Of a DNA stretch of 64,000 bases, positions 9,378 through 58,848 are shown piece by piece; positions within the stretch are counted from its first letter, which is position 1, and each line of letters begins with the position of its first letter. The notes under the pieces are model-generated. The model saw only the letters and a program-made list of their open reading frames with translations, did not search any database and was not told the DNA's origin. Position numbers and translations under genes: made by a program. The DNA comes from Bacteroidales bacterium (GTDB taxonomy: Bacteria; Bacteroidota; Bacteroidia; Bacteroidales; VadinHA17), in assembly GCA_035531395.1 (NCBI GenBank), contig DATKTA010000035.1, forward strand, positions 72,736-136,735, written 5' to 3'.

Positions 9378-9436
9378 CCTGAACCCTGAGCCCTGACCCT
9401 GAGCCCTGAGCCCTGAGCCCTGAGCCCTGAGTTCAG
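9378..9436. repeat. Heptanucleotide microsatellite (CCCTGAG)n, about 7 units
   Basis: Read directly: cctgaa ccctgag ccctga ccctgag x5. Lies in the gap between the LolA-like gene 3' end and the mnmE 5' end. Confidence 0.95.
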
Positions 9437-12518: not shown

Positions 12519-13928
12519 TCAGAAATCAATCCTGATGGCTGCATAGAAGTTATTCATAAAATCATCAACCAGGTCATACAGCGACCCGTCAATACCTCTG
12601 TAATATTCAAAACCGGTAATAATGGAAAGTCTGTCTGACGGTTTTATTTTAATTTCAGGAATTAATACTAAATCCTTTGATGTTATATTGTACATTGCAT
12701 TAAGTGATGGAGCCAGCCTGCCATAGGCAAGATCAGTTTCAATTCTGGTTCCAAATGAATGGTAGCACCTTTCTATCTGATAATTATAAAGTCGGTTAAA
12801 GGCGCTTACCTGCTGTCGTATATACTCCCCGATGTCAAAACCCGGATCGGCAACAAGCTGTCCTATCATTGTAAAATCAAGCTCTGTACCAAATACTGGT
12901 TCCGCTGAAGGTGTTGTATAGTCAAGGACAGATTTTCCACTATATTCAATCATAAATCTCCAGTTGTTTATTGAATAATCAACTCCTGTGACCCATGAAA
13001 TTTCAGGCAGAGGGACATATTCAAACTCCTCGTATGAAAGTAAGGGATCAGACCAGGCTGTTTCGCCCCGTATGCCAAAATCAGCGATTGATGACTCAAA
13101 ATCAAATCCGATTACTCTTGTTTTGTAAGGTTTGAATGAGAACTCCACAAGCGGTTGAGGTACAGTACCTGATATCTCAAGTATAAAACTGGTAAGTTTC
13201 ATCCCGGGCATTGGATCAAATCCCTCAAACCATGAAATGCTTGCATCAATATGCTTAATACGTAAGTCTGTCTTCAGACCATAGGAGAACATCTCTTTAT
13301 CAGACAGAAGAGAGTTAATTTGATTAATTGTAACAAATTCAGGTATCGGGATCGGATCGATTAAAAGAACTGAAGACCTGTAATATGGCACTAATGCTGC
13401 CTCAAAGCTCATAAAATTAAATGGATGCAGCTTGAAATCTGCCATAATATTTCCCATATCCATATCTTCTCTTTCCGGAGATCTGATAATATAGTTTTGA
13501 GGATTTAATCTTGATACCGGGTTGACAAAATCAGTCTTTCCCCATTTAATTATCTGTTGTCCGGCAGCAATGTCCCATTTCTTTCCATATACCTTCACAT
13601 AAGCTTCATGTAAATATATTGAGCTGGCAGGTTCTTGAAATTCAACTCCATATCTGAATCTCATATCAGCAAATGCTCTGAAATTAACGTCATTGCTTGT
13701 GTTGATTTTAAGTGCCAAATCTGAAAAAGCACTAGGCATATATGGTGTGTTTGAATCATCCTTATCAAGGGCTGCATAACAACCGCCCCTGATAAAACCA
13801 TATATCTCAGTATTTTTGACTATTCCATCAGAAGAGATTTCCGGATTTTCAGTTTGTCCTGCAAGCGATTTATAACATGTCAGGAGAAGAAAAATCATGA
13901 GCATTCTAAAAACAATCCTCATAGTCAC
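12519..13928 (-). CDS. Outer-membrane beta-barrel protein (DUF1302-like), function unknown
   Basis: Signal peptide, alternating aromatic/polar beta-strand pattern, C-terminal ...AAIRIDF. First gene of the OMP-MMPL-LolA-like operon. Confidence 0.55.
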   Translation of the reverse strand: MTMRIVFRMLMIFLLLTCYKSLAGQTENPEISSDGIVKNTEIYGFIRGGCYAALDKDDSNTPYMPSAFSDLALKINTSNDVNFRAFADMRFRYGVEFQEPASSIYLHEAYVKVYGKKWDIAAGQQIIKWGKTDFVNPVSRLNPQNYIIRSPEREDMDMGNIMADFKLHPFNFMSFEAALVPYYRSSVLLIDPIPIPEFVTINQINSLLSDKEMFSYGLKTDLRIKHIDASISWFEGFDPMPGMKLTSFILEISGTVPQPLVEFSFKPYKTRVIGFDFESSIADFGIRGETAWSDPLLSYEEFEYVPLPEISWVTGVDYSINNWRFMIEYSGKSVLDYTTPSAEPVFGTELDFTMIGQLVADPGFDIGEYIRQQVSAFNRLYNYQIERCYHSFGTRIETDLAYGRLAPSLNAMYNITSKDLVLIPEIKIKPSDRLSIITGFEYYRGIDGSLYDLVDDFMNNFYAAIRIDF

Positions 13929-15301: not shown

Positions 15302-16180
15302 ATGAGCGTTCTTCTAAACAAAGATTCAAAAGTTATTGTACAGGGCTTTACCGGTAGCGAAGGTACATTTCATGCAACACAGATGATTGAATACGGAACT
15401 AATGTTGTAGGAGGAGTTACTCCGGGAAAAGGAGGCCAGAAGCATCTTGATCTGCCAGTCTTCAACACTGTAAGAGAAGCTGTTGAGGAAACAGGTGCTG
15501 ATGTTTCAGTAATCTTTGTACCACCGGCCTTCGCTGCTGATGCAATGCTTGAAGCTGCTGATGCCGGAATAATGCTCATTGTAACAATAACTGAAGGCAT
15601 TCCTGTATCAGATATGATTCTTGTTAAAAACCACATTAAATCAAAAAAATGTCGCCTGATAGGCCCTAACTGTCCTGGTGTTATAACTCCCGGAGAGGCA
15701 AAGGTTGGAATAATGCCGGGTTTTATACATAAAAAAGGTTCTGTGGGAATAATTTCACGATCAGGTACACTTACATATGAAGCTGTGGATCAGGTTACCA
15801 AGATGGGATTGGGGCAGTCAACCTGCATCGGTATCGGAGGAGATCCAATTGTAGGCACAACTACACTTGATGCAGTTAAACTCATGATGGAAGATGATGA
15901 AACGAAAGCAATTGTTGTTATAGGTGAAATCGGCGGAACAATGGAAACAGAAGCTGCTGAATGGATCAGGGAAAACGGGACAAAACCGGTTATTGGCTTT
16001 ATTGCCGGACAGACTGCACCTAAGGGTAGAAAAATGGGACATGCAGGTGCAATAATAGGAGGTAAGAATGATACAGCCAGCGCCAAGATGGAGATTATGA
16101 AGGAGTGTGGAATAAATGTGGTTCAATCACCTGCTGATATTGGTAGCACAGTCTTTAATGCTCTTAAGGAAAGGCAGTAA
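15302..16180 (+). CDS. sucD: Succinyl-CoA synthetase alpha subunit
   Basis: N-terminus [23 protein letters not shown] and the phospho-His region MGHAGAII. No sucC is adjacent. Confidence 0.92.
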
Positions 16181-16266
16181 AGGCTGTAAAGGCCATAGAG
16201 GCTGCAGGTTATGAAGTAAAATAGTCTCTAAAGCATTTAAAGCCTCTAAAGCATTTAAAGCTTTTT
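16171..16266 (+). terminator. Long imperfect hairpin with tandem 9-nt word arms plus T-run (sucD terminator candidate)
   Basis: 5' arm is aaaggctgt/aaaggccat/agaggctgc. 3' arm is an 18-mer (ctctaaagcatttaaagc) x2 followed by ttttt. tagaggct pairs with agcctcta, with further imperfect pairing beyond. Confidence 0.55.
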
Positions 16267-18425: not shown

Positions 18426-18498
18426 GCCTCCTTAGCTCAGCCGGTAGAGCAGCTCATTCGTAATGAGCAGGTCGTGGGTTCGAGTCCCATTGGAGGCT
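18426..18498 (+). tRNA. tRNA-Thr (anticodon CGU)
   Basis: Hand-folded cloverleaf: acceptor GCCTCCT/TGGAGGC (one T-T mismatch at 7:66), D arm GCTC..GAGC, anticodon loop TTCGTAA, T arm GTGGG TTCGAGT CCCAT. Confidence 0.85.
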
Positions 18499-18505
18499 CT
18501 CTTAA

Positions 18506-18603
18506 TTCGCTTTGCGGATTGACGATTGCAGATTATGGATTTATTAATAAATTTGGCAGACATTATTTATAAATCCGAAATCGGAAATCAAAAATCCGAA
18601 ATT
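18506..18603. repeat. Heptad-periodic imperfect hairpin between the two tRNA genes
   Basis: 5' arm is gcggatt gacgatt gcagatt atggatt (18514-18541). 3' arm is aatccga aatcgga aatcaaa aatccga aatt (18572-18603). The GATT/AATC cores are complementary. Confidence 0.7.
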
Positions 18604-18610
18604 GGTTAAT

Positions 18611-18682
18611 GCGGGAGTAGCTCAGTGGCAGAGCATCAGCTTCCCAAGCTGAGGGTCGCGGGTTCGACCCCCGTTTCCCGCT
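18611..18682 (+). tRNA. tRNA-Gly (anticodon CCC)
   Basis: Hand-folded cloverleaf: acceptor GCGGGAG/TTCCCGC, anticodon loop TTCCCAA, T arm GCGGG TTCGACC CCCGT. Confidence 0.88.
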
Positions 18683-32443: not shown

Positions 32444-33056
32444 TTCTATTTGACATAATATTAATTATAGGCAAAACGTCCCGCACTCTTAATTATCCCG
32501 AAATTTGCGTTTAGCTCCGCTAATTGACATAATTTCAGATATGAGCCGCAAGGATCATATCGGTACCGAAATTATGTCAAAGCAAATTTCTTCCTTCTAT
32601 ATCGGCAACGATTTTATGTCAAAGGAATTTGCGGTTTACAGAGAAAGTAATTTTCTACAACGCCCTTCTGCCTCTTTTGCAGCGATAATTAATACTATAT
32701 CAAATAGAATTGGCGACCGGCATCCCATCTTCGCCAAGGCTACGATGGACAAGACAGGCTTCCGGCAACTGGCTTTAATTCATCCAGAATCAATTATTTC
32801 GATCCAGGTAGTATATCTGTTCGGAAAAATGCTGTGGAGGCTGGAGATACTTTATAGGCTGTAAAAGCAATAGCTGGTTGAAAAAGCTGAAAGGTTGAAA
32901 AGTTGAAAGGTTTAAGCGTTATTAAAGTGCAGTACTTAGTTCTTTCCATTCGCATTCTCCACAAAATATTTTGAGCAATTAAGTCCAGCCGTTGAGCCAT
33001 TGTCCCATTGCGCCATTGCGCCTTTAATTTGCTTTAAAACATTATGTCAAATAGAA
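32444..33056. repeat. 613-bp non-coding segment bounded by perfect 16-bp inverted repeats (MITE-like or invertible-segment-like)
   Basis: ttctatttgacataat (32444-32459) is the exact reverse complement of attatgtcaaatagaa (33041-33056). Internal copies of the core occur at 32524-32533 (ttgacataat), 32571-32580 (attatgtcaa) and 32614-32622 (ttatgtcaa). No convincing ORF lies inside. Confidence 0.6.
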
Positions 33057-35566: not shown

Positions 35567-35626
35567 AAGGTTTATAAAATTAGCTATTTATTATTCTTTG
35601 ATACTGATTATTGCATAAGCAAAGTC

Positions 35627-40186: not shown

Positions 40187-40453
40187 CTACTTATGCTTCC
40201 ATCTATCGAGCTTGCTGATATGGGATGTATAAAACCATCTTTTTATTGGACCTACACCCATCTCCTTCAGTTTTTCTTTTACAAGTTTTACCATTTCTGC
40301 TGAAGTGGTAAAATTATCTTTAAAGGAACCTCCCTCATAACAAAAACTGCAGTATTTAACTGTTATTGAGCCATCTGCATTAGTTCCTCCCCTGGCTGGA
40401 TCTTTTTCCATTGGCATTCCGCAACTCTGGCAGAACTTATCAAATTTTTCCAT
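40187..40453 (-). CDS. Small zinc-ribbon domain protein
   Basis: CQSCGMP...CSFC cysteine pairs. 88 aa. Confidence 0.6.
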   Translation of the reverse strand: MEKFDKFCQSCGMPMEKDPARGGTNADGSITVKYCSFCYEGGSFKDNFTTSAEMVKLVKEKLKEMGVGPIKRWFYTSHISKLDRWKHK

Positions 40454-40669
40454 AAGTCATGTAATATGATTAGTTTTTAATCAAAGAACTGACTATAATT
40501 TAAACCTTTTCAAATAAATAGCATCATTGTCAATTGTTTTTTTCTAATTTTATATGAAAACCTGCTTTTATATATATAAATCAGACACCTTAAATCCATT
40601 AACATTAATCTTTATTAAATTTGAAAATGCTCTTTTTCGTATCTCACTTTAATTTTGATTGCCAATAAA

Positions 40670-43614: not shown

Positions 43615-45396
43615 TCAACTAAATTTATAGGTAGGTATCTTTCTCATTCTTAGATTAAGAGGAGTAACCTCAAGGTACTCGTCTTCCTTAATCTGTTCCA
43701 TTGCTTCCTCCAGTGAGAACTTGAGCTTTGGTGCAATCCTGAGTCCTTCATCTGATCCTGAGGCCCTCATATTTGTAAGCTTTTTTCCCTTTATAATATT
43801 TACTTCAAGGTCACCCTGCCTGGTGTGTTCTCCAACAACCTGTCCCCTGTAAACCTGCTCACCCGGATCAATATAAAACCGTCCCCTGTCCTGCAGTCGG
43901 TCAATAGCATAACCGGTAGCCATTCCCATGTCAAGAGATATCAGAGATCCGTTTTGTTTTGGGAGCAGATCATCGCCCTTGTATTTATCATATGCACGGA
44001 ACCGGTGATGCATAACAGCTTCTCCAGCAGTTGCAGTAAGCATGTTGTTCCTCAGGCCTATCAGCCCCCTTGAAGGAATGTCAAATTCCAGGTGGATGAG
44101 ATCGCCTTTCGGCTCAATTATTATCATCTCCCCTTTTCGCTGAGTGACTAATTCAATTGCTTTTCCTGAAAAATCAGGTGGAAGATCAATAGTCAGGGTC
44201 TCATATGGCTCCGATTTTATCCCCTCTATGTCTTTAAGGATTACCTGTGGTTTGCCTACCTGGAACTCAAATCCTTCGCGCCGCATTGTTTCAATAAGAA
44301 TTGAAAGATGAAGTATGCCCCGGCCAAAAACATTAAATGTGTCTTCAGATTTTGTCTCCTCAACTTTTAAAGCAAGATTCTTTTCAGTTTCACGTAAAAG
44401 CCTGGTTCTGAGATGTCTTGAAGTAACTAATTTACCTTCCTTACCGAATAAAGGTGAATTGTTGATTGTAAAGACCATACTCATTGTAGGTTCATCAACT
44501 TCAATTCTTTTCAGCGCCTCTGGGGCGATCAGATCTGCAAGCGTATCTCCAATTTCAAAGTCTTCAAGACCAATGACTGCACATAAGTCTCCACAGCGGA
44601 CACTTGAAGTTTTTACCCGCCCCAGTCCCTCAAAAACATATAATTCTTTTACCCTTACTTTATTTACTTTCCCGTCCCTTTTACACAACGTATAATCAGA
44701 ACCTACATTAATATCTCCTCTGAAAACGCGACCTATAGCAATTCTTCCTACATAGCTTGAGAAATCAAGAGAGGCAATCTGCATCTGAACAGTACCGGGA
44801 ATATACTCTGGTCCCTGGATTTCCCTGATTATAATATCGAGCAAATACCTGATATCAGTACCTGGGTTTTTCCAGTCACTACCCATCCATCCAAGTTTAG
44901 AAGAGCCAAAGACAGTCTCAAAATTCAGCTGGTCATCTGAAGCGTCAAGGTTAAACATCAATTCATACACATCCTGCTGCACTTCATCAGGCCTGCAGTT
45001 TTCCTTGTCAACCTTATTGACAACCACAATTGGTTTAAGGCCAAGAGCAATCGCCTTTCCAAGAACAAACCTTGTCTGAGGCATAGGACCTTCAAGTGCA
45101 TCAACAAGCAGGAGAACACCGTCAGCCATTTTGAGAACCCGCTCCACCTCACCTCCGAAATCAGCATGTCCGGGAGTATCAATTATATTGATCTTTACTC
45201 CTTTGTAGTTAACTGCAACATTCTTTGATAGAATGGTAATACCCCGTTCCCGCTCAAGATCATTATTGTCGAGGATAAGATCACCCGCATCTTTTCTTTT
45301 ATCCAAAACCTGGCATTCCTGTATTATTCTGTCTACCAGAGTGGTCTTCCCATGGTCGACATGAGCTATGATAGCTATATTTCGTATTAATTGCAT
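43615..45396 (-). CDS. typA: Translational GTPase TypA/BipA
   Basis: [19 protein letters not shown] and [14 protein letters not shown]. Start trimmed to the ATG at 45396. Confidence 0.93.
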
Positions 45397-45511
45397 ATAA
45401 GTAAATAAGACCGCAAAAGTAATATTGTTCACCGGATTAATGTTAAAATTCATAAAAATTAATTAATGATAAAAAATTCATATATTCGGCGTAAACTTAA
45501 AAGACAGACTT

Positions 45512-46128: not shown

Positions 46129-46617
46129 ATGGTTTGCAGGATTATTGAAAATTTTCCTGAGCTTGACATAACTGCAATTAAAATTACTCCGCACTTTCAT
46201 GAAACCACTGATGGTTTGATTGTTATTGATGAAGGAGATGGATATGCTATATACAGTGAGACCAATCCCGGAAGCAATAAAGATTCTTCCCGAATGTTGA
46301 GTTCAGGTGCTGTAAAAGTATATTTTGCAAAAGTCTGGGATGAAAAGCTATTGACTGTATTCAACAAGATAATGAATTACATTGAGGCTGGGAGTCCCGT
46401 AGTCTGTGAATCCCCTGCCCTCCGAAACTATATTGAACCTGGAGCATTTATTTTAATGAATTCAGATTTGCAATATAATAAAAAGAATATAAGCCATTTA
46501 CAAACATTACCTCATTTAATGATAAAACTTGAGGAGCTTGACAATATAGATTCAATATCAATTGGATTTGAAGATGGGAAATGGTTTGTTAAGCCGGAAG
46601 ACAGAAGTCAGAAGTAG
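46129..46617 (+). CDS. MobB-like P-loop protein; annotated ATG probably truncates the N-terminus
   Basis: The in-frame upstream sequence (open from 46036) reads NLLIISGTGNKAGKTS before the ATG. IKITPHFH resembles MobB IKHTHH. Confidence 0.45.
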   Translation: MVCRIIENFPELDITAIKITPHFHETTDGLIVIDEGDGYAIYSETNPGSNKDSSRMLSSGAVKVYFAKVWDEKLLTVFNKIMNYIEAGSPVVCESPALRNYIEPGAFILMNSDLQYNKKNISHLQTLPHLMIKLEELDNIDSISIGFEDGKWFVKPEDRSQK

Positions 46618-46650
46618 ATTAAATCTTCGGTCTTCGGACTTCAGTCTTCC
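46596..46650. terminator. Heptad-word hairpin between convergent genes (bidirectional terminator candidate)
   Basis: 5' arm is gaagaca gaagtca gaagtag. 3' arm is cttcggt cttcgga cttcagt cttcc. ggaagac pairs with gtcttcc at the base. Confidence 0.55.
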
Positions 46651-46652
46651 AG

Positions 46653-47480
46653 CTATTTCTCCTCATCTATATCTGAAATGTCACTTCCAAGCCTGGCCTT
46701 GATACGCTGAAGGTCATGTTTCATTCCAGCTACGGCCTGTATGAGCTGTTTCTCAGGTAAAACAGGGTCCGGCAGCTCGTTACTTATGTAATTAACAAAC
46801 TTCCATATCTCCTTTACCTCATTTATATGAACCTCATATGGTTCATAAATAGGATTAAGTGAATAAAGAACAAGTTTCCCATCCTTTCTCAGGGTATTTT
46901 CAACCACCTTGAAGACAATCCCATCATCAAGAGTAAAGACTATATAAGCTTTTCCGCTTATTATCTCCATCCAGTCCTGCACATATTCACCTGTGACCCA
47001 TGATCCATCCGGTATTGGCAGCATGGAATCGCCCTTGAGCTGGAATGTTCTGTATTTCTTCCTGTCAGACAGGAATGGCAGGGTAAATACCGGCAGTTCT
47101 CCAATATATTCAGGGTCAGCATATCCTGTTGCATAGCCGGCTTTTGCCTTTTCAGGTACCAGCTCGATGTTTTCCCTGTTCTGAGAGTTTACCGTGGTAG
47201 TTAATACTCTCAGATTACTACCTTTTACATAAGCATCATATCCGCGTTCCAGTTCACCAAGCTGACTCTCTGACAGTTTTGAGATATCAAGCTTCAGTAT
47301 TGTATCGATGGATATATTAAAATACCCTGAAAATGAGATAAGTATCTCTATCCCAGGCTGAGCTACACCGTTCTCATAGCCACTTAGCGTTGAACGTTTG
47401 AGGTTAAGGGCAAATGCTACATCATCCTGTGTACGCCCTCTCCTTTTTCTTAGAAATTTTATGTTGGAAGCAAAATACAT
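46653..47480 (-). CDS. LexA-like repressor: XRE-type HTH plus S24 autopeptidase domain
   Basis: N-terminal HTH (RGRTQDDVAFALNLKRSTLSGYENG). C-terminal LKGDSMLP serine motif and a downstream Lys region. Divergent from the polymerase genes. Confidence 0.8.
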   Translation of the reverse strand: MYFASNIKFLRKRRGRTQDDVAFALNLKRSTLSGYENGVAQPGIEILISFSGYFNISIDTILKLDISKLSESQLGELERGYDAYVKGSNLRVLTTTVNSQNRENIELVPEKAKAGYATGYADPEYIGELPVFTLPFLSDRKKYRTFQLKGDSMLPIPDGSWVTGEYVQDWMEIISGKAYIVFTLDDGIVFKVVENTLRKDGKLVLYSLNPIYEPYEVHINEVKEIWKFVNYISNELPDPVLPEKQLIQAVAGMKHDLQRIKARLGSDISDIDEEK

Positions 47481-47491
47481 AATAAAATATT

Positions 47492-47533
47492 TGATTATAT
47501 TGTAATCATTGATTTGATTAATTTCTAATCAAA
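47492..47533. promoter_or_regulatory. Two tandem palindromes TGATTA-N5-TAATCA (candidate operators); the second overlaps a TAnnTTTG-type -7 box on the minus strand
   Basis: tgatta tattg taatca at 47492-47508. tttgatta atttc taatcaaa at 47513-47533. The minus strand reads TACTTTTG at 47537-47530. Confidence 0.5.
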
Positions 47534-47580
47534 AGTAAAATATATAATCTAATTATCCAAGATATTAATGGAAAAAGTTT

Positions 47581-47640
47581 GGAGTGAGCTAAAGTCTGGA
47601 GTACTTAAAGTCACAACAACTTTAGGCACTTTAGGCACTT
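47581..47640 (+). promoter_or_regulatory. Imperfect hairpin module ending 11 nt before the Y-family polymerase start codon
   Basis: ggagtgagctaaagt / ctggagtacttaaagt pairs with ctttaggcact x2 (ctaaagt:actttag plus gagtg:cact). Confidence 0.55.
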
Positions 47641-47651
47641 AAAACTACAAA

Positions 47652-48911
47652 ATGTTTTTAATCGGCAACATAGAACGTTCCATCCTGCATCTCGATCTCG
47701 ACACCTTCTTTGTATCGGTTGAGAGGCTCAGGAACAGCAGGCTCCTCGAAAAGCCGGTGATAATAGGCGGCATGTCGGACCGTGGAGTGGTATCAAGCTG
47801 CAGCTATGAGGCCCGCAAATACGGTGTAAGCTCAGCAATGCCCATGAAACTGGCCCGTAATATGTGTCCTGATGCGATCATAATACGAGGCGATATGGAA
47901 CTTTACAGTAATTACTCAAACATTGTAACAGATATAATAGCTGAAAGATCACCACTTTATGAAAAGTCATCGGTTGATGAGCACTATATCGATCTTACAG
48001 GCATGGATCGTTTCTACGGATGCTACAAATGGTCACATGAGCTGAGGCAGTATATAATAAAAGAGACCGGGCTGCCTATTTCAATAGGATTATCGGTAAA
48101 TAAGACTGTATCGAAAATAGCAACAGGAGAAGCAAAACCGAACGGGGAGATAGAAGTGCAGAAAGAAATAGTCCTCCCCTTTCTCGATCCGCTTTCAATA
48201 AACAAGATCCCGATGATAGGTCAGAAGACTTACCATCTGCTCCGTTCAATGGGAATAGCAAAAATCTACACACTCAGGAATATTCCTCCGGAAATGCTTG
48301 AAAAGCTTATGGGCAAAAATGGTATTGATATATGGAAGAAAGCCAATGGCATTGATTCAACACCTGTTTTCAGCTACTCGGAACAGAAATCAATAAGTAC
48401 AGAGCATACATTTGAGAAGGATACTACCGATATGGCTCGGCTTAACCAGCTGCTTGTAAGCATGATAGAAAAGATCTCATTTGAGATGAGGAAGCAGGAG
48501 AAGCTCACATCGTGCATCACAGTTAAAATAAGATATTCAAATTTTGATACCCACACCCTGCAGAAACGTATACCCTACACATCTTTCGACCATGTGCTTG
48601 CCGATGTTGCCAAGGAGCTCTTCACAAGGCTGTACCAGCGGCGTATGCTCATAAGACTGATCGGGGTCAGGTTCAGCCATTTGGTCAGGGGAGTACAGCA
48701 ACTCGACATGTTTGACGATACCCCTGAAAAGGTAAGTCTCTACCTGGCTATGGATAGTCTGCGGAAGCGTTTCGGGCGAAATGCAGTAGAAAGGGCCTCA
48801 GGTGTGATGACAATAAGAGAAAGGGAGGAGAAAGTGCTTAAACAGCTCGAAAATGCTATCAAAGAACAGAATATGATGGAGGAACGAATAAGAAAGTATG
48901 GAGTGAGCTAA
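47652..48911 (+). CDS. dinB: Y-family DNA polymerase (DinB/Pol IV-like, catalytic residues present)
   Basis: LHLDLDTFFVSVE and SVDEHYIDLTG align to DinB IHVDMDCFFAAVE and SLDEAYLDVT. 419 aa. Confidence 0.85.
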   Translation: MFLIGNIERSILHLDLDTFFVSVERLRNSRLLEKPVIIGGMSDRGVVSSCSYEARKYGVSSAMPMKLARNMCPDAIIIRGDMELYSNYSNIVTDIIAERSPLYEKSSVDEHYIDLTGMDRFYGCYKWSHELRQYIIKETGLPISIGLSVNKTVSKIATGEAKPNGEIEVQKEIVLPFLDPLSINKIPMIGQKTYHLLRSMGIAKIYTLRNIPPEMLEKLMGKNGIDIWKKANGIDSTPVFSYSEQKSISTEHTFEKDTTDMARLNQLLVSMIEKISFEMRKQEKLTSCITVKIRYSNFDTHTLQKRIPYTSFDHVLADVAKELFTRLYQRRMLIRLIGVRFSHLVRGVQQLDMFDDTPEKVSLYLAMDSLRKRFGRNAVERASGVMTIREREEKVLKQLENAIKEQNMMEERIRKYGVS

Positions 48912-49019
48912 AGTGTGGAGTGAGCTAGAGTTAAAAATAATAAGAATAATATGAGAACCAAAACTCTAAGTACTCTAGGCACTTAGGCACTCTAGGCACT
49001 CTAGGCACTCTAGGCACTC
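48900..49019 (+). promoter_or_regulatory. Second copy of the hairpin module, spanning the polymerase stop codon and ending 6 nt before the dnaE2-like start
   Basis: Same 15-nt 5' word ggagtgagctaaagt, then gtggagtgagctagagt. The 3' arm is ctaggcact repeated about 4.5 times. ctagagt pairs with actctag. Confidence 0.55.
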
Positions 49020-49025
49020 AAAACT

Positions 49026-51962
49026 ATGTATTTAAACTGCCATTCATACTACAGCCTTCGCTACGGAACAATGTCTGTTGAACAGCTTGTGCAGAAAGCA
49101 GTTGCCGGATCGGCTGAAACCATTGTGCTTACCGATATCAATAACTCAACAGCCATACCTGACTTTGCCGCAGAATGCAGAAAGAATGGAATAAGACCTG
49201 TTGCCGGTATCGAATTCCGTAATGAAAATGAACTTCTTTACATATGTATTGCGCGCAATAACAATGGATTAAGAGAACTCAATGAATTTCTCTCAGATTC
49301 TAACTTCAGCAAAACACCGGTCCCCTTCCCTGCTCCACGCTTCGATGAAGCCTATACAGTCTATTCACTGAAGAAAATTCCTTCAAGAGAACTATTTGAT
49401 AATGAGAGAATAGGAATAAAAACTAATGAGCTTAACAGGCTTATCTCTATTAATTCCTCATTTATAAGGAACCGCATGGTACTGCTTCATCCGGTAACAT
49501 TTGCAGAGCCAAATGATATATTTATTCACCGCAGCCTGAGGGCTGTTGACAATAATATCCTGCTCAGCCATTTAAAACCCTCACAGCATGCAGGTGAGGA
49601 TGAGTTTTTCAGGAATCCGGAATATTTTGAAAAATTGAAGAAGGAACATCCATGGCTATTTGAAAATACAGGAAAGCTTATTAATGACTGTAATCTTTAC
49701 TTTGACAGTGAAAGTCTCAAAAACAAGAAGTTATACTCCGCCAGCAGATATGACGATAAGTTGCTGCTTGAGAAGCTTGCATGGGACGGAATGACTTACA
49801 GGTACGGTAAAAAAAACTATGAGGCTAAAAAAAGAATTACACATGAACTTGAGATAATTGACAGGCTGGGTTTTTCTGCCTACTTCCTGATTACCTGGGA
49901 TATTGTAAGGTACTCGATGGCCCGGGGTTTTTATCACGTCGGCAGAGGCAGCGGAGCAAATTCTGTTGTTGCTTACTGCCTGAAAATCACCAATGTTGAC
50001 CCTATTGACCTGAACCTTTACTTTGAGCGCTTCATCAACCCCAAACGAAGTAGTCCGCCTGATTTTGACATCGATTATTCATGGAAAGAAAGGGATGAGG
50101 TGATCGATTATATTTTTAAGCGGTATGGTTACAGCCATACTGCGCTTCTCGGCACTATCAATACATTCCGTGGAAAGTCGATAGTAAGGGAACTGGGCAA
50201 GGTACACGGACTTCCAAAGGAAGAGATCGATTCTCTGATCGATAACCCGTCATCAGAAACCAACAGGAATGAAATAACCGAAACCATTTTCTCAACAGGA
50301 CTCAGGATTGCTGACTTTCCAAATATGAGAAGCATTCATGCAGGAGGCATACTTATATCAGAGGAACCGATCACCTGCTATACTGCTCTGGATATGCCGC
50401 CAAAAGGATTCCCCACAACACAGTGGGACATGTACACTGCTGAGGAAATAGGCTTTGAGAAGCTCGATATACTTAGTCAGAGGGGCATTGGCCATATCCG
50501 TGAGAGCACCGAGATAATACTGCAGAACAGGGCTATTGAAGTTGATGTCCATGCCATTCAGAAATTCAAGGAGGACAGTAAAGTAAGGGAATACCTGCGT
50601 AACGGTGAGACCAAGGGATGCTTTTATATAGAGAGCCCGGCAATGAGAGGATTGCTGAAAAAGCTGAAGTGTGACACCTACACTACCCTTGTTGCTGCCA
50701 GCTCGGTCATCAGGCCCGGAGTAGCACGATCCGGGATGATGAAGCAATATATATACAGGTTCCATAATCCCGATAAATTCGAATATATACATCCTGTGAT
50801 GAAAGAACAGCTCGAAGAGACATTCGGCGTAATGGTATACCAGGAGGATGTTCTGAAGGTATGCCATCACTTTGCAGGACTCGATCTGGCTGATGCCGAT
50901 ACGTTAAGGAGAGCCATGAGTGGTAAATACAGGTCTAAACAGGAAATGAAGCGCATAGTTGACAAGTTCTTCTATAACTGCCGTCAGAAGGGATACAGCG
51001 AAGAGGTGACACAGGAGGTATGGCGACAGATCGAATCGTTTGCCGGTTACTCGTTCTCCAAAGCGCACTCAGCATCATATGCTGTTGAGAGCTTCCAGAG
51101 CCTGTACCTCAAGACGCACTTTCCACTGGAATTCATGGTTGCTGTCATCAATAATTTCGGTGGTTTTTACCGTACATGGGTATATGTGCATGAAGCGCGA
51201 AGGTTCGGTGCAAGCATCGAACTCCCATGCGTCAATAAAAGCAAATACAAGACAACTATTTATGGAACAGTTATATACATAGGGTTTATACATATCATGA
51301 GCCTTGAATTCAGCCTTGCACAATCGATCGAGACTATACGTGCCGAGGAAGGGCCTTTCAAAGATCTGAATGATTTTGTAACCAGGGTTGCTCCGGGTCT
51401 TGAACAGTTGATCCTCCTGATAAGAGCAGGTGCTCTCAGGTTCACAGGGAAAAAAAAGTCTGTACTTCTATGGGAGGCTCATATGATGATAAACAAGAAC
51501 AAGACTGAAAACATCAGGCCCCTCTTCTCTCCTCCTGTTAAAAACTTTACACTTCCTGAACTGGTTCAGGGTAAGATGGAAGACGTATATGATGAGATTG
51601 AACTATTTGGTTTCCCTGTTACTGTAAGCTGGTTCGATATGCTTGAAACATCATTCAGGGGCGAGATTACTTCTCAGAAAATGATTGAATCTGTCGGTAA
51701 AACTGTACGTATGGTAGGTCACCTGGTTACAGTCAAATATATTAAAACAGTAAAAAATGACTGGATGAACTTTGGCTGCTTCATTGATGCCGAAGGAAGC
51801 TTCTTTGACACAGTGCATTTTTCAAATTCACTCAAATTATGGCCATTCAAGGGAAGCGGGACATACCTGCTCCTCGGAAAAGTTGTTGAAGATTTTGGTT
51901 TTCCGTCACTCGAGGTTGAAAAAATGGCTAAGCTTCCCATAAAGCCTGACCAGAGATATTAG
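49026..51962 (+). CDS. dnaE2: Pol III alpha-subunit paralog, DnaE2-like error-prone polymerase
   Basis: PHP N-terminus MYLNCHSYYSLRYGT. Polymerase core motifs (PDFDIDY, GFEKLDILSQRG, SFAGYSFSKAHSASYA). 978 aa, shorter than a typical replicative DnaE. Positioned after the Y-family polymerase. Confidence 0.8.
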   Translation: MYLNCHSYYSLRYGTMSVEQLVQKAVAGSAETIVLTDINNSTAIPDFAAECRKNGIRPVAGIEFRNENELLYICIARNNNGLRELNEFLSDSNFSKTPVPFPAPRFDEAYTVYSLKKIPSRELFDNERIGIKTNELNRLISINSSFIRNRMVLLHPVTFAEPNDIFIHRSLRAVDNNILLSHLKPSQHAGEDEFFRNPEYFEKLKKEHPWLFENTGKLINDCNLYFDSESLKNKKLYSASRYDDKLLLEKLAWDGMTYRYGKKNYEAKKRITHELEIIDRLGFSAYFLITWDIVRYSMARGFYHVGRGSGANSVVAYCLKITNVDPIDLNLYFERFINPKRSSPPDFDIDYSWKERDEVIDYIFKRYGYSHTALLGTINTFRGKSIVRELGKVHGLPKEEIDSLIDNPSSETNRNEITETIFSTGLRIADFPNMRSIHAGGILISEEPITCYTALDMPPKGFPTTQWDMYTAEEIGFEKLDILSQRGIGHIRESTEIILQNRAIEVDVHAIQKFKEDSKVREYLRNGETKGCFYIESPAMRGLLKKLKCDTYTTLVAASSVIRPGVARSGMMKQYIYRFHNPDKFEYIHPVMKEQLEETFGVMVYQEDVLKVCHHFAGLDLADADTLRRAMSGKYRSKQEMKRIVDKFFYNCRQKGYSEEVTQEVWRQIESFAGYSFSKAHSASYAVESFQSLYLKTHFPLEFMVAVINNFGGFYRTWVYVHEARRFGASIELPCVNKSKYKTTIYGTVIYIGFIHIMSLEFSLAQSIETIRAEEGPFKDLNDFVTRVAPGLEQLILLIRAGALRFTGKKKSVLLWEAHMMINKNKTENIRPLFSPPVKNFTLPELVQGKMEDVYDEIELFGFPVTVSWFDMLETSFRGEITSQKMIESVGKTVRMVGHLVTVKYIKTVKNDWMNFGCFIDAEGSFFDTVHFSNSLKLWPFKGSGTYLLLGKVVEDFGFPSLEVEKMAKLPIKPDQRY

Positions 51963-51966
51963 ATGT

Positions 51967-54165
51967 TCATGAGGAACCGTCAATTCGGGTAGCTTTTACA
52001 ATACCTTTTATACTTTGTATTTTACGTATAATTGTATGAAGAATATCACTATTAGGTACCATTATATTAAGTATTCCTTCAAATAATCCATCATTCATAT
52101 TATAATTGAAACTGCGCATCGCAACCTTATGATCAGCAATAATATCTGCAATTTTGTTTACCATCCCAATATCCTCTACCCCGGTTATTTTAACTGAAGC
52201 TATGAATGAAGGAATATTTGATGACTTTGACCATTTTGCTGCAATCAGTCTGTATGGATACCTTGAAAGCATATTCCTTGCATTCGGACAACTGCTCCTG
52301 TGAATCTTAATCCCTTCAGATATTGTCACAAATCCGAAAATGGCATCTCCGAACACCGGGTTGCAGCATTTGGATAATCTATAATCAAGTCCTTCAACTT
52401 TATCCTGAATTATAAGATAATCTGCATACTGTGGACTCTTTAACTCTCTGGTTTCTTTTTCTTCTGACACAACTGCTTCAACAATCGGTTCAGAGGTTTC
52501 TGCCTTTAGTAAAACATTTTTTATCTCAAGTAGTTCAAGTTTTTCTATCGCAATAAAATAGTACAGATCAATTGCATATTTCAGACGATAATGATTAAGA
52601 AGGCTTTGAATAACTGTATCATTATAGGCAATTTTCCAGTTTTTCATTCTCCTCATCAATATTTCCTTACCTTCAGCTGCAGCTTTAGTCTTCTCCTCAT
52701 TCAGTACCTGTCTGATCTTTGTTTTTGCCTTATTTGTGACCACGAAAGAAAGCCAGTCCTGTTTCGGCTTCTGGCTTTTTGACCTTAAAATTGAAACATG
52801 ATCACCATTTTGCAGGATATACCTGATTGTCACATTCTTTCCGTTTACTTTTCCACCGACACATGAAGCCCCGACAGCTGTATGAATATCAAAGGCAAAA
52901 TCGAGAAGCGTTGCACCTGCAGGCAACTGTAGAAGATCGCCTTTAGGGGTGAAAACAAAAACTTCATCTGTATATAGCCCTGATTTTACATGGTCCAGAA
53001 AAGCAGTATCCTCTTTTTCAGATGATTCAAGTATCTCACGCATTTTTGAAAGCCAGGTATCAAGACCGCCTTCCCCCTTTATTCCCTTATATTTGAAATG
53101 AGCAGCCAGGCCCTTTTCGGCAATCTCATCCATCCTGACTGATCGTATCTGAACTTCTACCCATTTACCTCTGGGACCAACAACTGTTGTATGCAGTGAT
53201 TCATAACCATTCGATTTTGGAACAGATATCCAGTCTCGCATCCTGCTTGGATTTGGCTGATAAAGATCAGTAACAACAGAATATACTCTCCAACAGTCTG
53301 ATTTTTCGTTTTCCGGTTCGCTGTCAATTATAATCCTGATAGCAAAAAGATCATAAACTTCTTCAAATTCCACACCCTGCTTTTTCATCTTAAGCATTAT
53401 GGAATGAATTGATTTTGTGCGACTTTTAATAGTTAACTTGAAGTTTATCTTCAGAAGCTTCTCTTTCAAGGGGGTTGAAAAATCACGGATCAGCTTATTT
53501 CTTGATGCTGTGGTTTGCCTGAGTTTACACTCTATCTCATTATATTGTTCAGGTTCAAGATACTTTACTGCCAGATCTTCCATTTCCGACTTGATATTGT
53601 AGAATCCAAGCCGGTGTGCCAATGGAGCATAAAGAAAATATGTTTCGGACGCCAGTGGCAGCCTCTCCTTTTCCGGGGCATTATCAAGATTCCTCATATA
53701 CTCCATTCTTTCAACAAGCTTAATGAGGATAACCCGGACATCGTCGGCCAGACTTAAGAGAAGCTTACGGAAGTTTTCAGCCTGATATGACGACTGCATT
53801 GAATCTATGTCTGTTATTCTGGAAAAACCCTGAAGTATTTCAACTACTTTACTCCCAAACTCTTTTTCAAGCTCTTTGTGACTGACTGGCAGATTATTAT
53901 ATGAATCATGCAACAAGGCTGTTATTATCGCAGTAAGACCCAACCCCATTTCACCTGCAATGATTCTTGCCACTGATAAAGCATGAAGTATCTCGGGCTC
54001 ACCGGTAATTGTTATTTTATCGCCACTTGCCTTCACTGCAAACTCAAGCGCTTTTCTGATCTTTGAGTTATCTTCATGACTTACAGAGTTTCTGGCAGCC
54101 AGCAGCAGCGCTCTGTAAGCTGAATATATTTTTTGCTTGTTTGAAGTCATGGTTTTCCTGATCAT
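51967..54165 (-). CDS. relA: Bifunctional (p)ppGpp synthetase/hydrolase RelA/SpoT homolog
   Basis: HD region (ALLHD), the synthetase region RMRDWISVPKSNGYESLHTTV, and TGS and ACT-like C-terminal domains. The TTG at 54189 was rejected in favour of the ATG at 54165. Confidence 0.9.
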   Translation of the reverse strand: MIRKTMTSNKQKIYSAYRALLLAARNSVSHEDNSKIRKALEFAVKASGDKITITGEPEILHALSVARIIAGEMGLGLTAIITALLHDSYNNLPVSHKELEKEFGSKVVEILQGFSRITDIDSMQSSYQAENFRKLLLSLADDVRVILIKLVERMEYMRNLDNAPEKERLPLASETYFLYAPLAHRLGFYNIKSEMEDLAVKYLEPEQYNEIECKLRQTTASRNKLIRDFSTPLKEKLLKINFKLTIKSRTKSIHSIMLKMKKQGVEFEEVYDLFAIRIIIDSEPENEKSDCWRVYSVVTDLYQPNPSRMRDWISVPKSNGYESLHTTVVGPRGKWVEVQIRSVRMDEIAEKGLAAHFKYKGIKGEGGLDTWLSKMREILESSEKEDTAFLDHVKSGLYTDEVFVFTPKGDLLQLPAGATLLDFAFDIHTAVGASCVGGKVNGKNVTIRYILQNGDHVSILRSKSQKPKQDWLSFVVTNKAKTKIRQVLNEEKTKAAAEGKEILMRRMKNWKIAYNDTVIQSLLNHYRLKYAIDLYYFIAIEKLELLEIKNVLLKAETSEPIVEAVVSEEKETRELKSPQYADYLIIQDKVEGLDYRLSKCCNPVFGDAIFGFVTISEGIKIHRSSCPNARNMLSRYPYRLIAAKWSKSSNIPSFIASVKITGVEDIGMVNKIADIIADHKVAMRSFNYNMNDGLFEGILNIMVPNSDILHTIIRKIQSIKGIVKATRIDGSS

Positions 54166-54184
54166 CTGTTTTAAAATCCATCGG

Positions 54185-54223
54185 AACAAAAAATCCCCGG
54201 AAGTACGAGAACCCCGGGGATTT
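54185..54223 (-). terminator. Rho-independent terminator (minus strand)
   Basis: aaatccccgg / ccggggattt forms a 10-bp stem. On the minus strand it is followed by uuuuuug. Confidence 0.8.
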
Positions 54224-58775: not shown

Positions 58776-58848
58776 TGATCCAGCTGGGTCTCGAACCCAG
58801 GACCCCATCCTTAAAAGGGATGTGCTCTACCAACTGAGCTACTGAATC
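58776..58848 (-). tRNA. tRNA-Lys (anticodon UUU)
   Basis: The reverse complement folds as GATTCAG TA GCTC AGTTGGTA GAGC A CATCC CTTTTAA GGATG GGGTC CTGGG TTCGAGA CCCAG CTGGATC A. Confidence 0.9.

Follow-up and report, generated by a model that had tools for sequence, protein, structure and literature searches.

In a 64,000-nt stretch of genomic DNA from a Bacteroidales bacterium (contig DATKTA010000035.1; called the window below, with all position numbers referring to the whole stretch), two copies of the inverted repeat TGATTA-N5-TAATCA are located between the gene of a repressor with an XRE-type helix-turn-helix (HTH) and an S24 peptidase domain and a divergent operon encoding a DinB-like and a DnaE2-like DNA polymerase. 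We consider it probable that these palindromes are tandem operators of the adjacent repressor, a non-canonical member of the LexA family, which would repress its own gene, very probably co-repress the polymerase operon and act as a DNA damage switch that is relieved by RecA. An initial annotation made from the sequence had already proposed the adjacent repressor as the binding protein. This prediction is now supported by the conservation of the palindromes in 144 of 146 orthologous upstream regions, by the homology of the repressor to validated binders of dyad-N5-dyad operators and by the recurrence of the motif upstream of a second, unlinked gene.

The tandem palindromes and their conservation

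Both palindromes, O1 (proximal to the repressor gene) and O2 (distal), are exact and 17 bp long. They are separated by a 6-bp gap, with their centres at 47500 and 47523 and thus 23 bp apart, and both lie inside the 171-bp gap (47481–47651) between the minus-strand repressor gene and the plus-strand gene of the Y-family polymerase, exactly as the initial annotation had described. Its estimate that such an arrangement is very unlikely to arise by chance also holds. The exact motif occurs three times in the window, compared with an expectation of 0.02 from dinucleotide shuffles, and none of 100 shuffles reached three copies. The third copy, O3 (40467–40483), had been overlooked in the annotation. 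If up to two mismatches are allowed, the enrichment is gone (10 observed, 8.3 expected), and therefore only near-perfect sites are meaningful. A position weight matrix (PWM) built from orthologous sites only, with a maximum score of 25.7, gives the three sites the scores listed in Table 1. In the window the next match reaches 12.7, and 15.1 was the highest score among 40 shuffles. The palindromes described are real, and their occurrence is highly non-random. That next match (at 35603, upstream of an M81/MlrC peptidase gene) was dismissed as it is below the shuffle maximum and the gene is not repair-related; another at 12963 (score 8.0) was dismissed as sub-threshold and within a coding region.

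Orthologous loci were collected by two scans. A metagenome scan with the repressor yielded 80 loci with 82–95% protein identity, and a genome scan, using one genome per species and an alignment of seven repressor sequences as query, yielded more than 589 relatives. The best 80 of these are all uncultured metagenome-assembled genomes (MAGs), all from separate species, with 71–95% repressor identity; according to the submitters' own labels they are mostly Bacteroidales, some being assigned to Rikenellaceae or Marinilabiliaceae. Pooling both sets resulted in 146 non-identical upstream sequences (repressor identity 71–95%). In the 144 of them that contain both sites, the distance between the centres is 23 bp with a single exception (143/144), and O1 ends 5–12 nt from the repressor ATG in 142 loci. 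The comparison of orthologous intergenic regions, which the initial annotation had proposed as a check, hence turned out in its favour, with spacing and promoter overlap being essentially invariant. When 54 orthologues were examined position by position, each arm position of O1 was kept in 50–54 and each arm position of O2 in 49–54 of them. The O1 spacer TATTG was found in all 54, whereas the O2 spacer varies freely; the DNA outside the promoter/operator block drifts among the orthologues. Substitutions in the arms were one-sided in 54 cases and compensated in none, which argues against a selected hairpin and for half-site recognition by a protein.

The motif is not restricted to this clade. 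A sister repressor with 56% identity (L171) has TGATTA-AATAT-TAATCA in its upstream region and, 23 bp away, a second site in which both arms are changed symmetrically (GACTA-CAATA-TAGTC). A homologue with 46% identity (L173), which is not linked to polymerase genes, has TGATGA-TATTT-TAATCA. As these sister clades keep the motif, it marks a broad family branch and not one species group.

In some loci (L166, with the block at 2698–2741, L168, L169 and L171), a G/C-rich palindromic insertion puts 30–223 nt between the promoter/operator block and the repressor ATG, so that about 50 nt remain between the operators and the polymerase ATG; promoter and operators have shifted as one unit. In locus L094, the complete repressor locus is preceded at 2.4 kb by a second, oppositely oriented operator pair with a truncated dinB-like fragment (positions 898–941 and 1238–1756), an arrangement due either to partial, inverted duplication or to chimeric assembly.

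The sites coincide with a predicted promoter of the repressor gene. TAnnTTTG is the -7 consensus of Bacteroidota promoters, and on the minus strand TACTTTTG fits this consensus and overlaps O2, the fusion reading TACTTTTG followed by ATTA, with a TTGG 19 nt further upstream; both elements had been read correctly in the initial annotation. Fusion of TAnnTTTG to the distal site is found in 143 of 144 loci, and the TTG at the predicted -33 position is about 99% conserved in the anchored consensus. A TTG 17–24 nt upstream of the -7 box is present in all 144 loci, which in AT-rich DNA is weak evidence alone. On the repressor strand the order is TTG, 20 nt, TAnnTTTG fused to O2, 6 bp, O1, about 10 nt and ATG. 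O2 spans the -7 box and the predicted start site, O1 lies in the predicted 5' untranslated region, a short leader, 11 nt upstream of the ATG, and the position of the operators is anchored to the repressor ATG and not to the polymerase ATG. With O2 on the -7 box and predicted start and O1 in the leader, this is therefore the layout of an autorepressed gene, as far as the promoter consensus can be relied upon. Autoregulation, as claimed in the annotation, is well supported in silico by the conserved sites on the predicted promoter, by their fixed geometry and by the homology of the repressor to an autoregulating family.

The repressor family and its known operators

The repressor contains an HTH_3 domain (PF01381, 1.1e-13) and a Peptidase_S24 domain (PF00717, 2.4e-7). 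Comparing the C-terminal S24 halves, it is 45% identical (E = 2e-49) to WP_025606010 of Pontibacter actiniarum, with which it shares the cleavage-site block ENIELVP.KA.AGY, and 35% identical (E = 3e-25) to WP_075324850 of S. agarivorans. All 17 homologues compared (41–91% identity) have Ala114-Gly115, Ser152 and Lys191. The AlphaFold (AF2) model has a mean predicted local distance difference test (pLDDT) value of 74.6, with about 90 in the N-terminal domain. Foldseek searches with the full-length model returned a lambda/186 hybrid repressor and LexA as matches; the C-terminal domain matches the catalytic domains of LexA and CI with template modelling (TM) scores of about 0.7 (LexA: 1jhc, 7ocj, 8trg), and the N-terminal domain matches the HTH domains of SinR, P22 c2, ImmR and DdrO with TM scores of 0.83–0.87. 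A sequence search of the PDB with the repressor retrieved XRE-family HTH proteins only.

A family of this kind has been described. Sanchez-Osuna et al. (Nucleic Acids Research 2021; PMC8565304) defined the "non-canonical LexA" proteins of Bacteroidetes as COG2932-type repressors composed of HTH_XRE and S24 domains. These proteins autoregulate and control SOS genes including error-prone polymerases, and they bind GGA-N5-TCC or CTAA-N5-TTAG operators, both arms and the spacer length being essential in electrophoretic mobility shift assays (EMSA). Paralogues were found to evolve new dyads with an unchanged N5 spacer (PMC8565304). Judged by its sequence, the window repressor is a member of this family and stands outside both published motif groups. 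An assignment to either group was rejected, since the arms are TGATTA and TAATCA in 144 loci and no register aligns; the CTAA that can be read in O2 arises from one variable spacer base only. The full TGATTA-N5-TAATCA motif is absent from the promoter sets of that study, whose Table S10 holds one unvalidated ATTA-N5-TAAT dyad, and PMC8565304 was the only relevant paper retrieved when the literature was searched for this motif and for an SOS regulon of Bacteroidales. The initial annotation had treated this kind of operator as unknown, which has to be corrected as both the regulator family and the dyad-N5-dyad architecture were published in 2021; what is new here is the arm sequence, the lineage and the small target gene. 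The same survey scored Bacteroidales as lacking orthologues, a gap explained by the fact that MAGs are the sole source of the present clade.

Like the window protein, P. actiniarum WP_025606010 combines PF01381 with PF00717, has a short-arm N5 palindrome in its own promoter, several sites per promoter and a tie to error-prone polymerase genes. The window system differs in its arms, TGATTA with six conserved positions and ATTA instead of CTAA as the inner four, in the strictly fixed tandem pair and in its lineage of uncultured Bacteroidales-type MAGs. Its regulon as seen so far is minimal and includes a Zn-ribbon gene that is unmentioned in PMC8565304. The nearest precedent for a local repressor-polymerase pair is the paralogue WP_078407279 of Elizabethkingia anophelis (PMC8565304, Fig. 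8 and Table S10), whose operator TTAC-AAATT-GTAA lies about 15 bp upstream of the start codon; its gene is arranged "tandem opposite" to an error-prone polymerase gene, EMSA showed binding to the site, and mitomycin C induces the two genes. An N5 dyad near the regulator start and a divergent error-prone polymerase gene are thus common to both systems, whereas the arms differ and a single site takes the place of the fixed tandem pair; moreover, WP_078407279 is one of several family members encoded by the same genome.

The tandem geometry has a parallel in phage lambda. The operators O_R2 and O_R3 of lambda are 17 bp long and lie 23 bp apart centre to centre. As in the window, a 6-bp AT-rich gap separates them. 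They are placed on the promoters of divergent units and the repressor autoregulates, as is proposed for the window locus; lambda CI also combines an HTH with a self-cleaving S24 fold (Foldseek 7jvt, 1f39, 2hnf). The window locus is distinguished by its chromosomal context, by two sites instead of three and by only 10–13% identity in the structural alignment, and neither a Cro-like antagonist nor positive autoregulation is evident at it. Canonical LexA, in turn, resembles the window repressor in the C-terminal catalytic and dimerisation fold, and its logic is presumed to be common to both, namely autorepression and repression of translesion polymerases, relieved by RecA-stimulated self-cleavage. 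In place of the winged HTH of LexA (PF01726), however, the window repressor has a five-helix XRE/CI-type HTH, and its operator is unrelated in sequence and spacing. A canonical LexA was accordingly rejected: PF01726 has no match in the repressor, no LexA model of NCBIfam is passed and the operator is unlike the known LexA boxes, bearing no relation to CTGT-N8-ACAG or GAAC-N4-GTTC, as the initial annotation had already stated.

A prophage CI or an immunity repressor of the ImmR type from an integrative and conjugative element (ICE) was rejected as well, because the context is non-mobile and the synteny of repressor and polymerase genes is kept in at least 80 species-level genomes. The open reading frames (ORFs) around the locus are typA-like, redoxin, relA/spoT-like, dinB-like and dnaE2-like, along with unassigned ones, and the window ORFs examined included none of phage or ICE origin.

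The Zn-ribbon gene and the polymerase operon

O3 is a single copy between the promoter and the start codon of a gene for a small protein with a Zn_ribbon_2 domain, 13 nt upstream of its ATG. Including the window, an operator is present upstream of the orthologous Zn-ribbon gene in 13 distinct loci, the other 12 sites scoring 15.9–24 and lying 7–12 nt upstream. Half of these 12 came from scanning the flanks of the repressor loci with the PWM (0.39 Mb and 1.33 Mb, about 1.7 Mb), where all other strong matches precede a Zn-ribbon orthologue (L054, L070, L075, L098, L117, L130), except for the duplicated operator pair of L094 and the displaced repressor operators of L166 mentioned above. The site of L130 is a tandem pair 24 bp apart. 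The remaining six, among loci L081–L089, were found via Zn-ribbon homologues with 69–79% identity and have sites scoring 15.9–23.6 about 7–12 nt upstream of the ATG. The site is kept whatever the upstream neighbour is, a DUF2461 gene, a PQQ beta-propeller gene or another. Its ATG-proximal half TAATCAAA is invariant and its distal half degenerate (TGATTA, TGATCA, TGACTA, TGATGA), which is typical of protein operators. With the same motif before a second, unlinked gene in 13 loci, it therefore behaves as the operator of a regulon, and the Zn-ribbon gene appears, by sequence comparison, to be its second conserved member.

In the Zn-ribbon protein, two CxxC pairs are invariant. Searches of the PDB by sequence gave no match, Foldseek gave no meaningful fold match (best E = 2.4), NCBIfam had no model for it and no literature on the PF12674 family was found. 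In many genomes a Memo-like gene follows the Zn-ribbon gene and a DUF2461/TIGR02453 gene precedes it.

On the other side of the tandem operators, the DinB-like protein scores 277 bits against the NCBIfam DNA polymerase IV model NF002677 (cut-off 256). Repressor and polymerase genes are divergent in all loci with enough flanking sequence, that is, in all 57 metagenome and all 71 genome loci (128/128), and this arrangement is retained in the sister clade at 56% identity. All 62 genome loci whose flanks extend to 5 kb or more contain the dnaE2-like gene. The intergenic region measures 83–827 bp, and the distal site is about 35–800 nt away from the polymerase ATG. At the shortest spacers (83–100 bp), any polymerase promoter must therefore overlap the operator/promoter block. 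The claim that the repressor controls the polymerase genes, made in the initial annotation, is made likely by the universal divergence and the published precedent, whereas the anchoring of the sites to the repressor promoter and the lack of a recognisable polymerase-strand promoter do not support it. Altogether, co-repression of the divergent polymerase operon from O1 and O2 is likely by sequence and analogy.

A Bacteroidetes system with an apparently active PolY2 and a DnaE2 but without ImuA or ImuB-C has been reported by Timinskas and Venclovas (Nucleic Acids Research 2019; PMC6511836), and the pair in the window matches this putative "PolY2 + DnaE2" mutasome. No regulator or operator for this cassette was identified in Bacteroidales-type genomes in that study.

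Directly upstream of each polymerase-gene ATG, at 47574–47640 and 48893–49019, a composite repeat was observed. It consists of about 2.3 copies of AAAGTnTGGAGTGAGCT, a spacer, repeats of ACT(C/T)TAGGC (2.4 copies before the dinB-like and 6.4 before the dnaE2-like gene) and AAAACT...ATG. Since the 17-mers are approximately the reverse complement of two 9-mers, long and imperfect hairpins can form, with RNA folding free energies (dG) of -22.7 (z -2.05) and -37.5 (z -2.64). Exact copies of TTAGGCACT occur nowhere else in the 64 kb, and orthologous loci have the same or quite different 7–9-nt tandem repeats in this place (GGACTTC x5, CTCCAAA x6, CTCTAAGTA x3). These repeats are possibly leader structures or elements resembling repetitive extragenic palindromes (REP). 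In many genomes (L003, L007, L009, L011, L014, L017), a GC-rich palindromic element of the type GTCATTGCGAGGAGCGAAGCGACGAAGCAATC lies between the operators and the polymerase ATG; insertion of such elements explains a large part of the differences in spacer length.

Further arrays of 7–9-nt tandem repeats, e.g. CCTGAGC x7.9, are found between longer ORFs of the window at 9378–9431, 16170–16265, 18571–18602, 32877–33022 and 46597–46649, and one pair among them, GAAGTCA x2.7 and TCTTCGG x3.7, spans the gap between a 162-aa ORF and the repressor stop codon; the lineage seems to be rich in short tandem arrays. Apart from three tRNA genes, no Rfam family was found at gathering score anywhere in the window.

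Table 1. Predicted operators, promoter elements and genes of the window
Feature	Position	Strand	Sequence or size	Remarks
Proximal operator O1 (predicted)	47492–47508		TGATTA-TATTG-TAATCA	exact palindrome; PWM score 23.6
Distal operator O2 (predicted)	47515–47531; extended tt...aa form 47513–47533		TGATTA-ATTTC-TAATCA	exact palindrome; PWM score 25.7
Third operator O3 (predicted)	40467–40483		(ta)TGATTA-GTTTT-TAATCA(aa)	exact match; PWM score 24.0
Predicted -7 box of repressor promoter	47530–47537	-	TACTTTTG	fits TAnnTTTG; TTTG formed by flank and first bases of O2
Predicted -33 element of repressor promoter	47557–47560	-	TTGG	TTG, then 20 nt to the -7 box
Repressor gene	46653–47480	-	275 aa	XRE-type HTH and S24 peptidase (Pfam)
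Y-family DinB-like polymerase gene	47652–48911	+	419 aa	apparently active; Pfam IMS, IMS_C
DnaE2-like second polymerase III alpha gene	49026–51962	+	978 aa	same operon, downstream; Pfam PHP, DNA_pol3_alpha, finger, HHH_6
Zn_ribbon_2 protein gene	40187–40453	-	88 aa	Pfam PF12674, 1.8e-19
typA-like GTPase ORF	43615–45453			named from translation
relA/spoT-like ORF	51967–54189			named from translation
tRNA gene	18426–18498	+		Rfam RF00005
tRNA gene	18611–18682	+		Rfam RF00005
tRNA gene	58776–58848	-		Rfam RF00005

Proposed switch, alternative explanations and implications

In the mechanism that we propose, one repressor dimer would bind each 17-bp site with one HTH per arm, and the O1/O2 pair would be bound cooperatively via the C-terminal domains; a spacing that equals that of lambda O_R2-O_R3 and is invariant in 143 of 144 loci suggests such pairwise cooperative binding. 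Bound repressor would block RNA polymerase at its own promoter and probably also at the back-to-back promoter of the mutagenic polymerase operon, and at the single site O3 it would repress the Zn-ribbon gene likewise. Upon DNA damage, filaments of RecA on single-stranded DNA would stimulate the Ser152/Lys191 dyad to cleave between Ala114 and Gly115, thereby freeing the operators. We infer binding, cooperativity, co-repression of the polymerases, RecA dependence and damage induction from sequence and analogy, and the label "SOS-type" given in the initial annotation derives from the homology of the repressor and from the polymerase cassette.

Several observations weigh against this mechanism, among them that the repressor passes no LexA-type model of NCBIfam, and give room to other explanations. 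The most serious of these, which we nevertheless regard as unlikely, is that the operators control the repressor and Zn-ribbon genes only and that the polymerase operon has an independent promoter and is regulated otherwise, e.g. by the repeat-hairpin leaders. The operators are placed by the repressor ATG, with a widely varying distance to the polymerase ATG. A TAnnTTTG on the polymerase strand is absent in 91 of 127 loci and a properly spaced -33 element is found in none, a sigma-70 consensus scan being uninformative for Bacteroidota. Apart from sporadic matches with two mismatches, no additional operator set was found near the polymerase ATG, not even in loci with long spacers, and conserved repeat or hairpin elements lie directly upstream of both polymerase ATGs. 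However, the divergence is kept without exception and persists in the sister clade, and the shortest spacers are too short for a promoter clear of the operator block; in addition, the homologous divergent pair of E. anophelis is co-induced by mitomycin C, and error-prone polymerases form the conserved core of SOS regulons (PMC8565304). An improbable further possibility is that the repressor does bind the sites but is no RecA-dependent damage switch, responding instead to another signal or to a partner protease as in ImmR/ImmA and DdrO/PprI, or being a domesticated immunity repressor of a mobile element. Its N-terminal domain is closest to HTH domains of the ImmR, CylR2, DdrO and SinR type, and the 2021 survey found no Bacteroidales orthologues (PMC8565304). 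Moreover, the regulon found so far is tiny and without a classical repair gene, recA, uvr and ruv being outside the 64-kb window and the scanned flanks, and the only additional target, the Zn-ribbon gene, is without a known link to DNA damage. These points are outweighed by the invariant Ala-Gly and Ser/Lys dyad, which is the signature of self-cleaving S24 repressors, by the 45% identity to a validated SOS regulator and by the mutagenic polymerase cassette as partner operon. The locus is also chromosomal and syntenic in at least 80 species, with typA-like and relA/spoT-like flanks, and no gene for a partner protease was seen beside the repressor in the window.

Very improbable, finally, is that the palindromes are kept as hairpins (in an RNA leader or as a DNA cruciform), as AT-rich promoter architecture or as the site of an unrelated factor. 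O1 would be part of the leader transcript, a stem of 6 bp is possible for each palindrome and the proximal site of L171 shows the symmetric change of both arms described above. In addition, simple dimer binding gives no explanation for the non-palindromic spacer of O1 (47498–47502; CAATA on the repressor strand), which is invariant in about 140 diverged loci and in the sister clade at 56% identity and hints at a further constraint. The stems, however, would be weak AU-only 6-mers, most of O2 is located at the start site or upstream of it, at the unlinked Zn-ribbon gene the motif recurs with its proximal half invariant and its distal half degenerate, and the architecture equals that of the validated operators of the family (PMC8565304). 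With one-sided changes in all 54 cases, none of them compensated, and no match to any Rfam family, an RNA structure was rejected, and the palindromes are best regarded as probable operators of the adjacent repressor.

The concept of such switches is left unchanged by our analysis, the value of which is incremental. If the proposed mechanism is correct, it would extend the non-canonical LexA proteins to the uncultured, Bacteroidales-type inhabitants of wetlands, sediments and digesters, a very large group, and provide for them a highly conserved operator from which the regulon may be predicted by simple genome scanning. [quoted passage not shown] More tentatively, and with less than even probability in our view, these bacteria may possess a compact LexA-like circuit with a cooperative tandem operator, whose sole conserved target beyond the polymerase cassette is the 87–88-aa Zn-ribbon protein as an effector of the damage response. 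The Zn-ribbon protein is thereby flagged as a candidate, and if this suggestion is true, it would be a new DNA-damage-response effector, e.g. an inhibitor of cell division or a modulator of RecA or of the polymerases.

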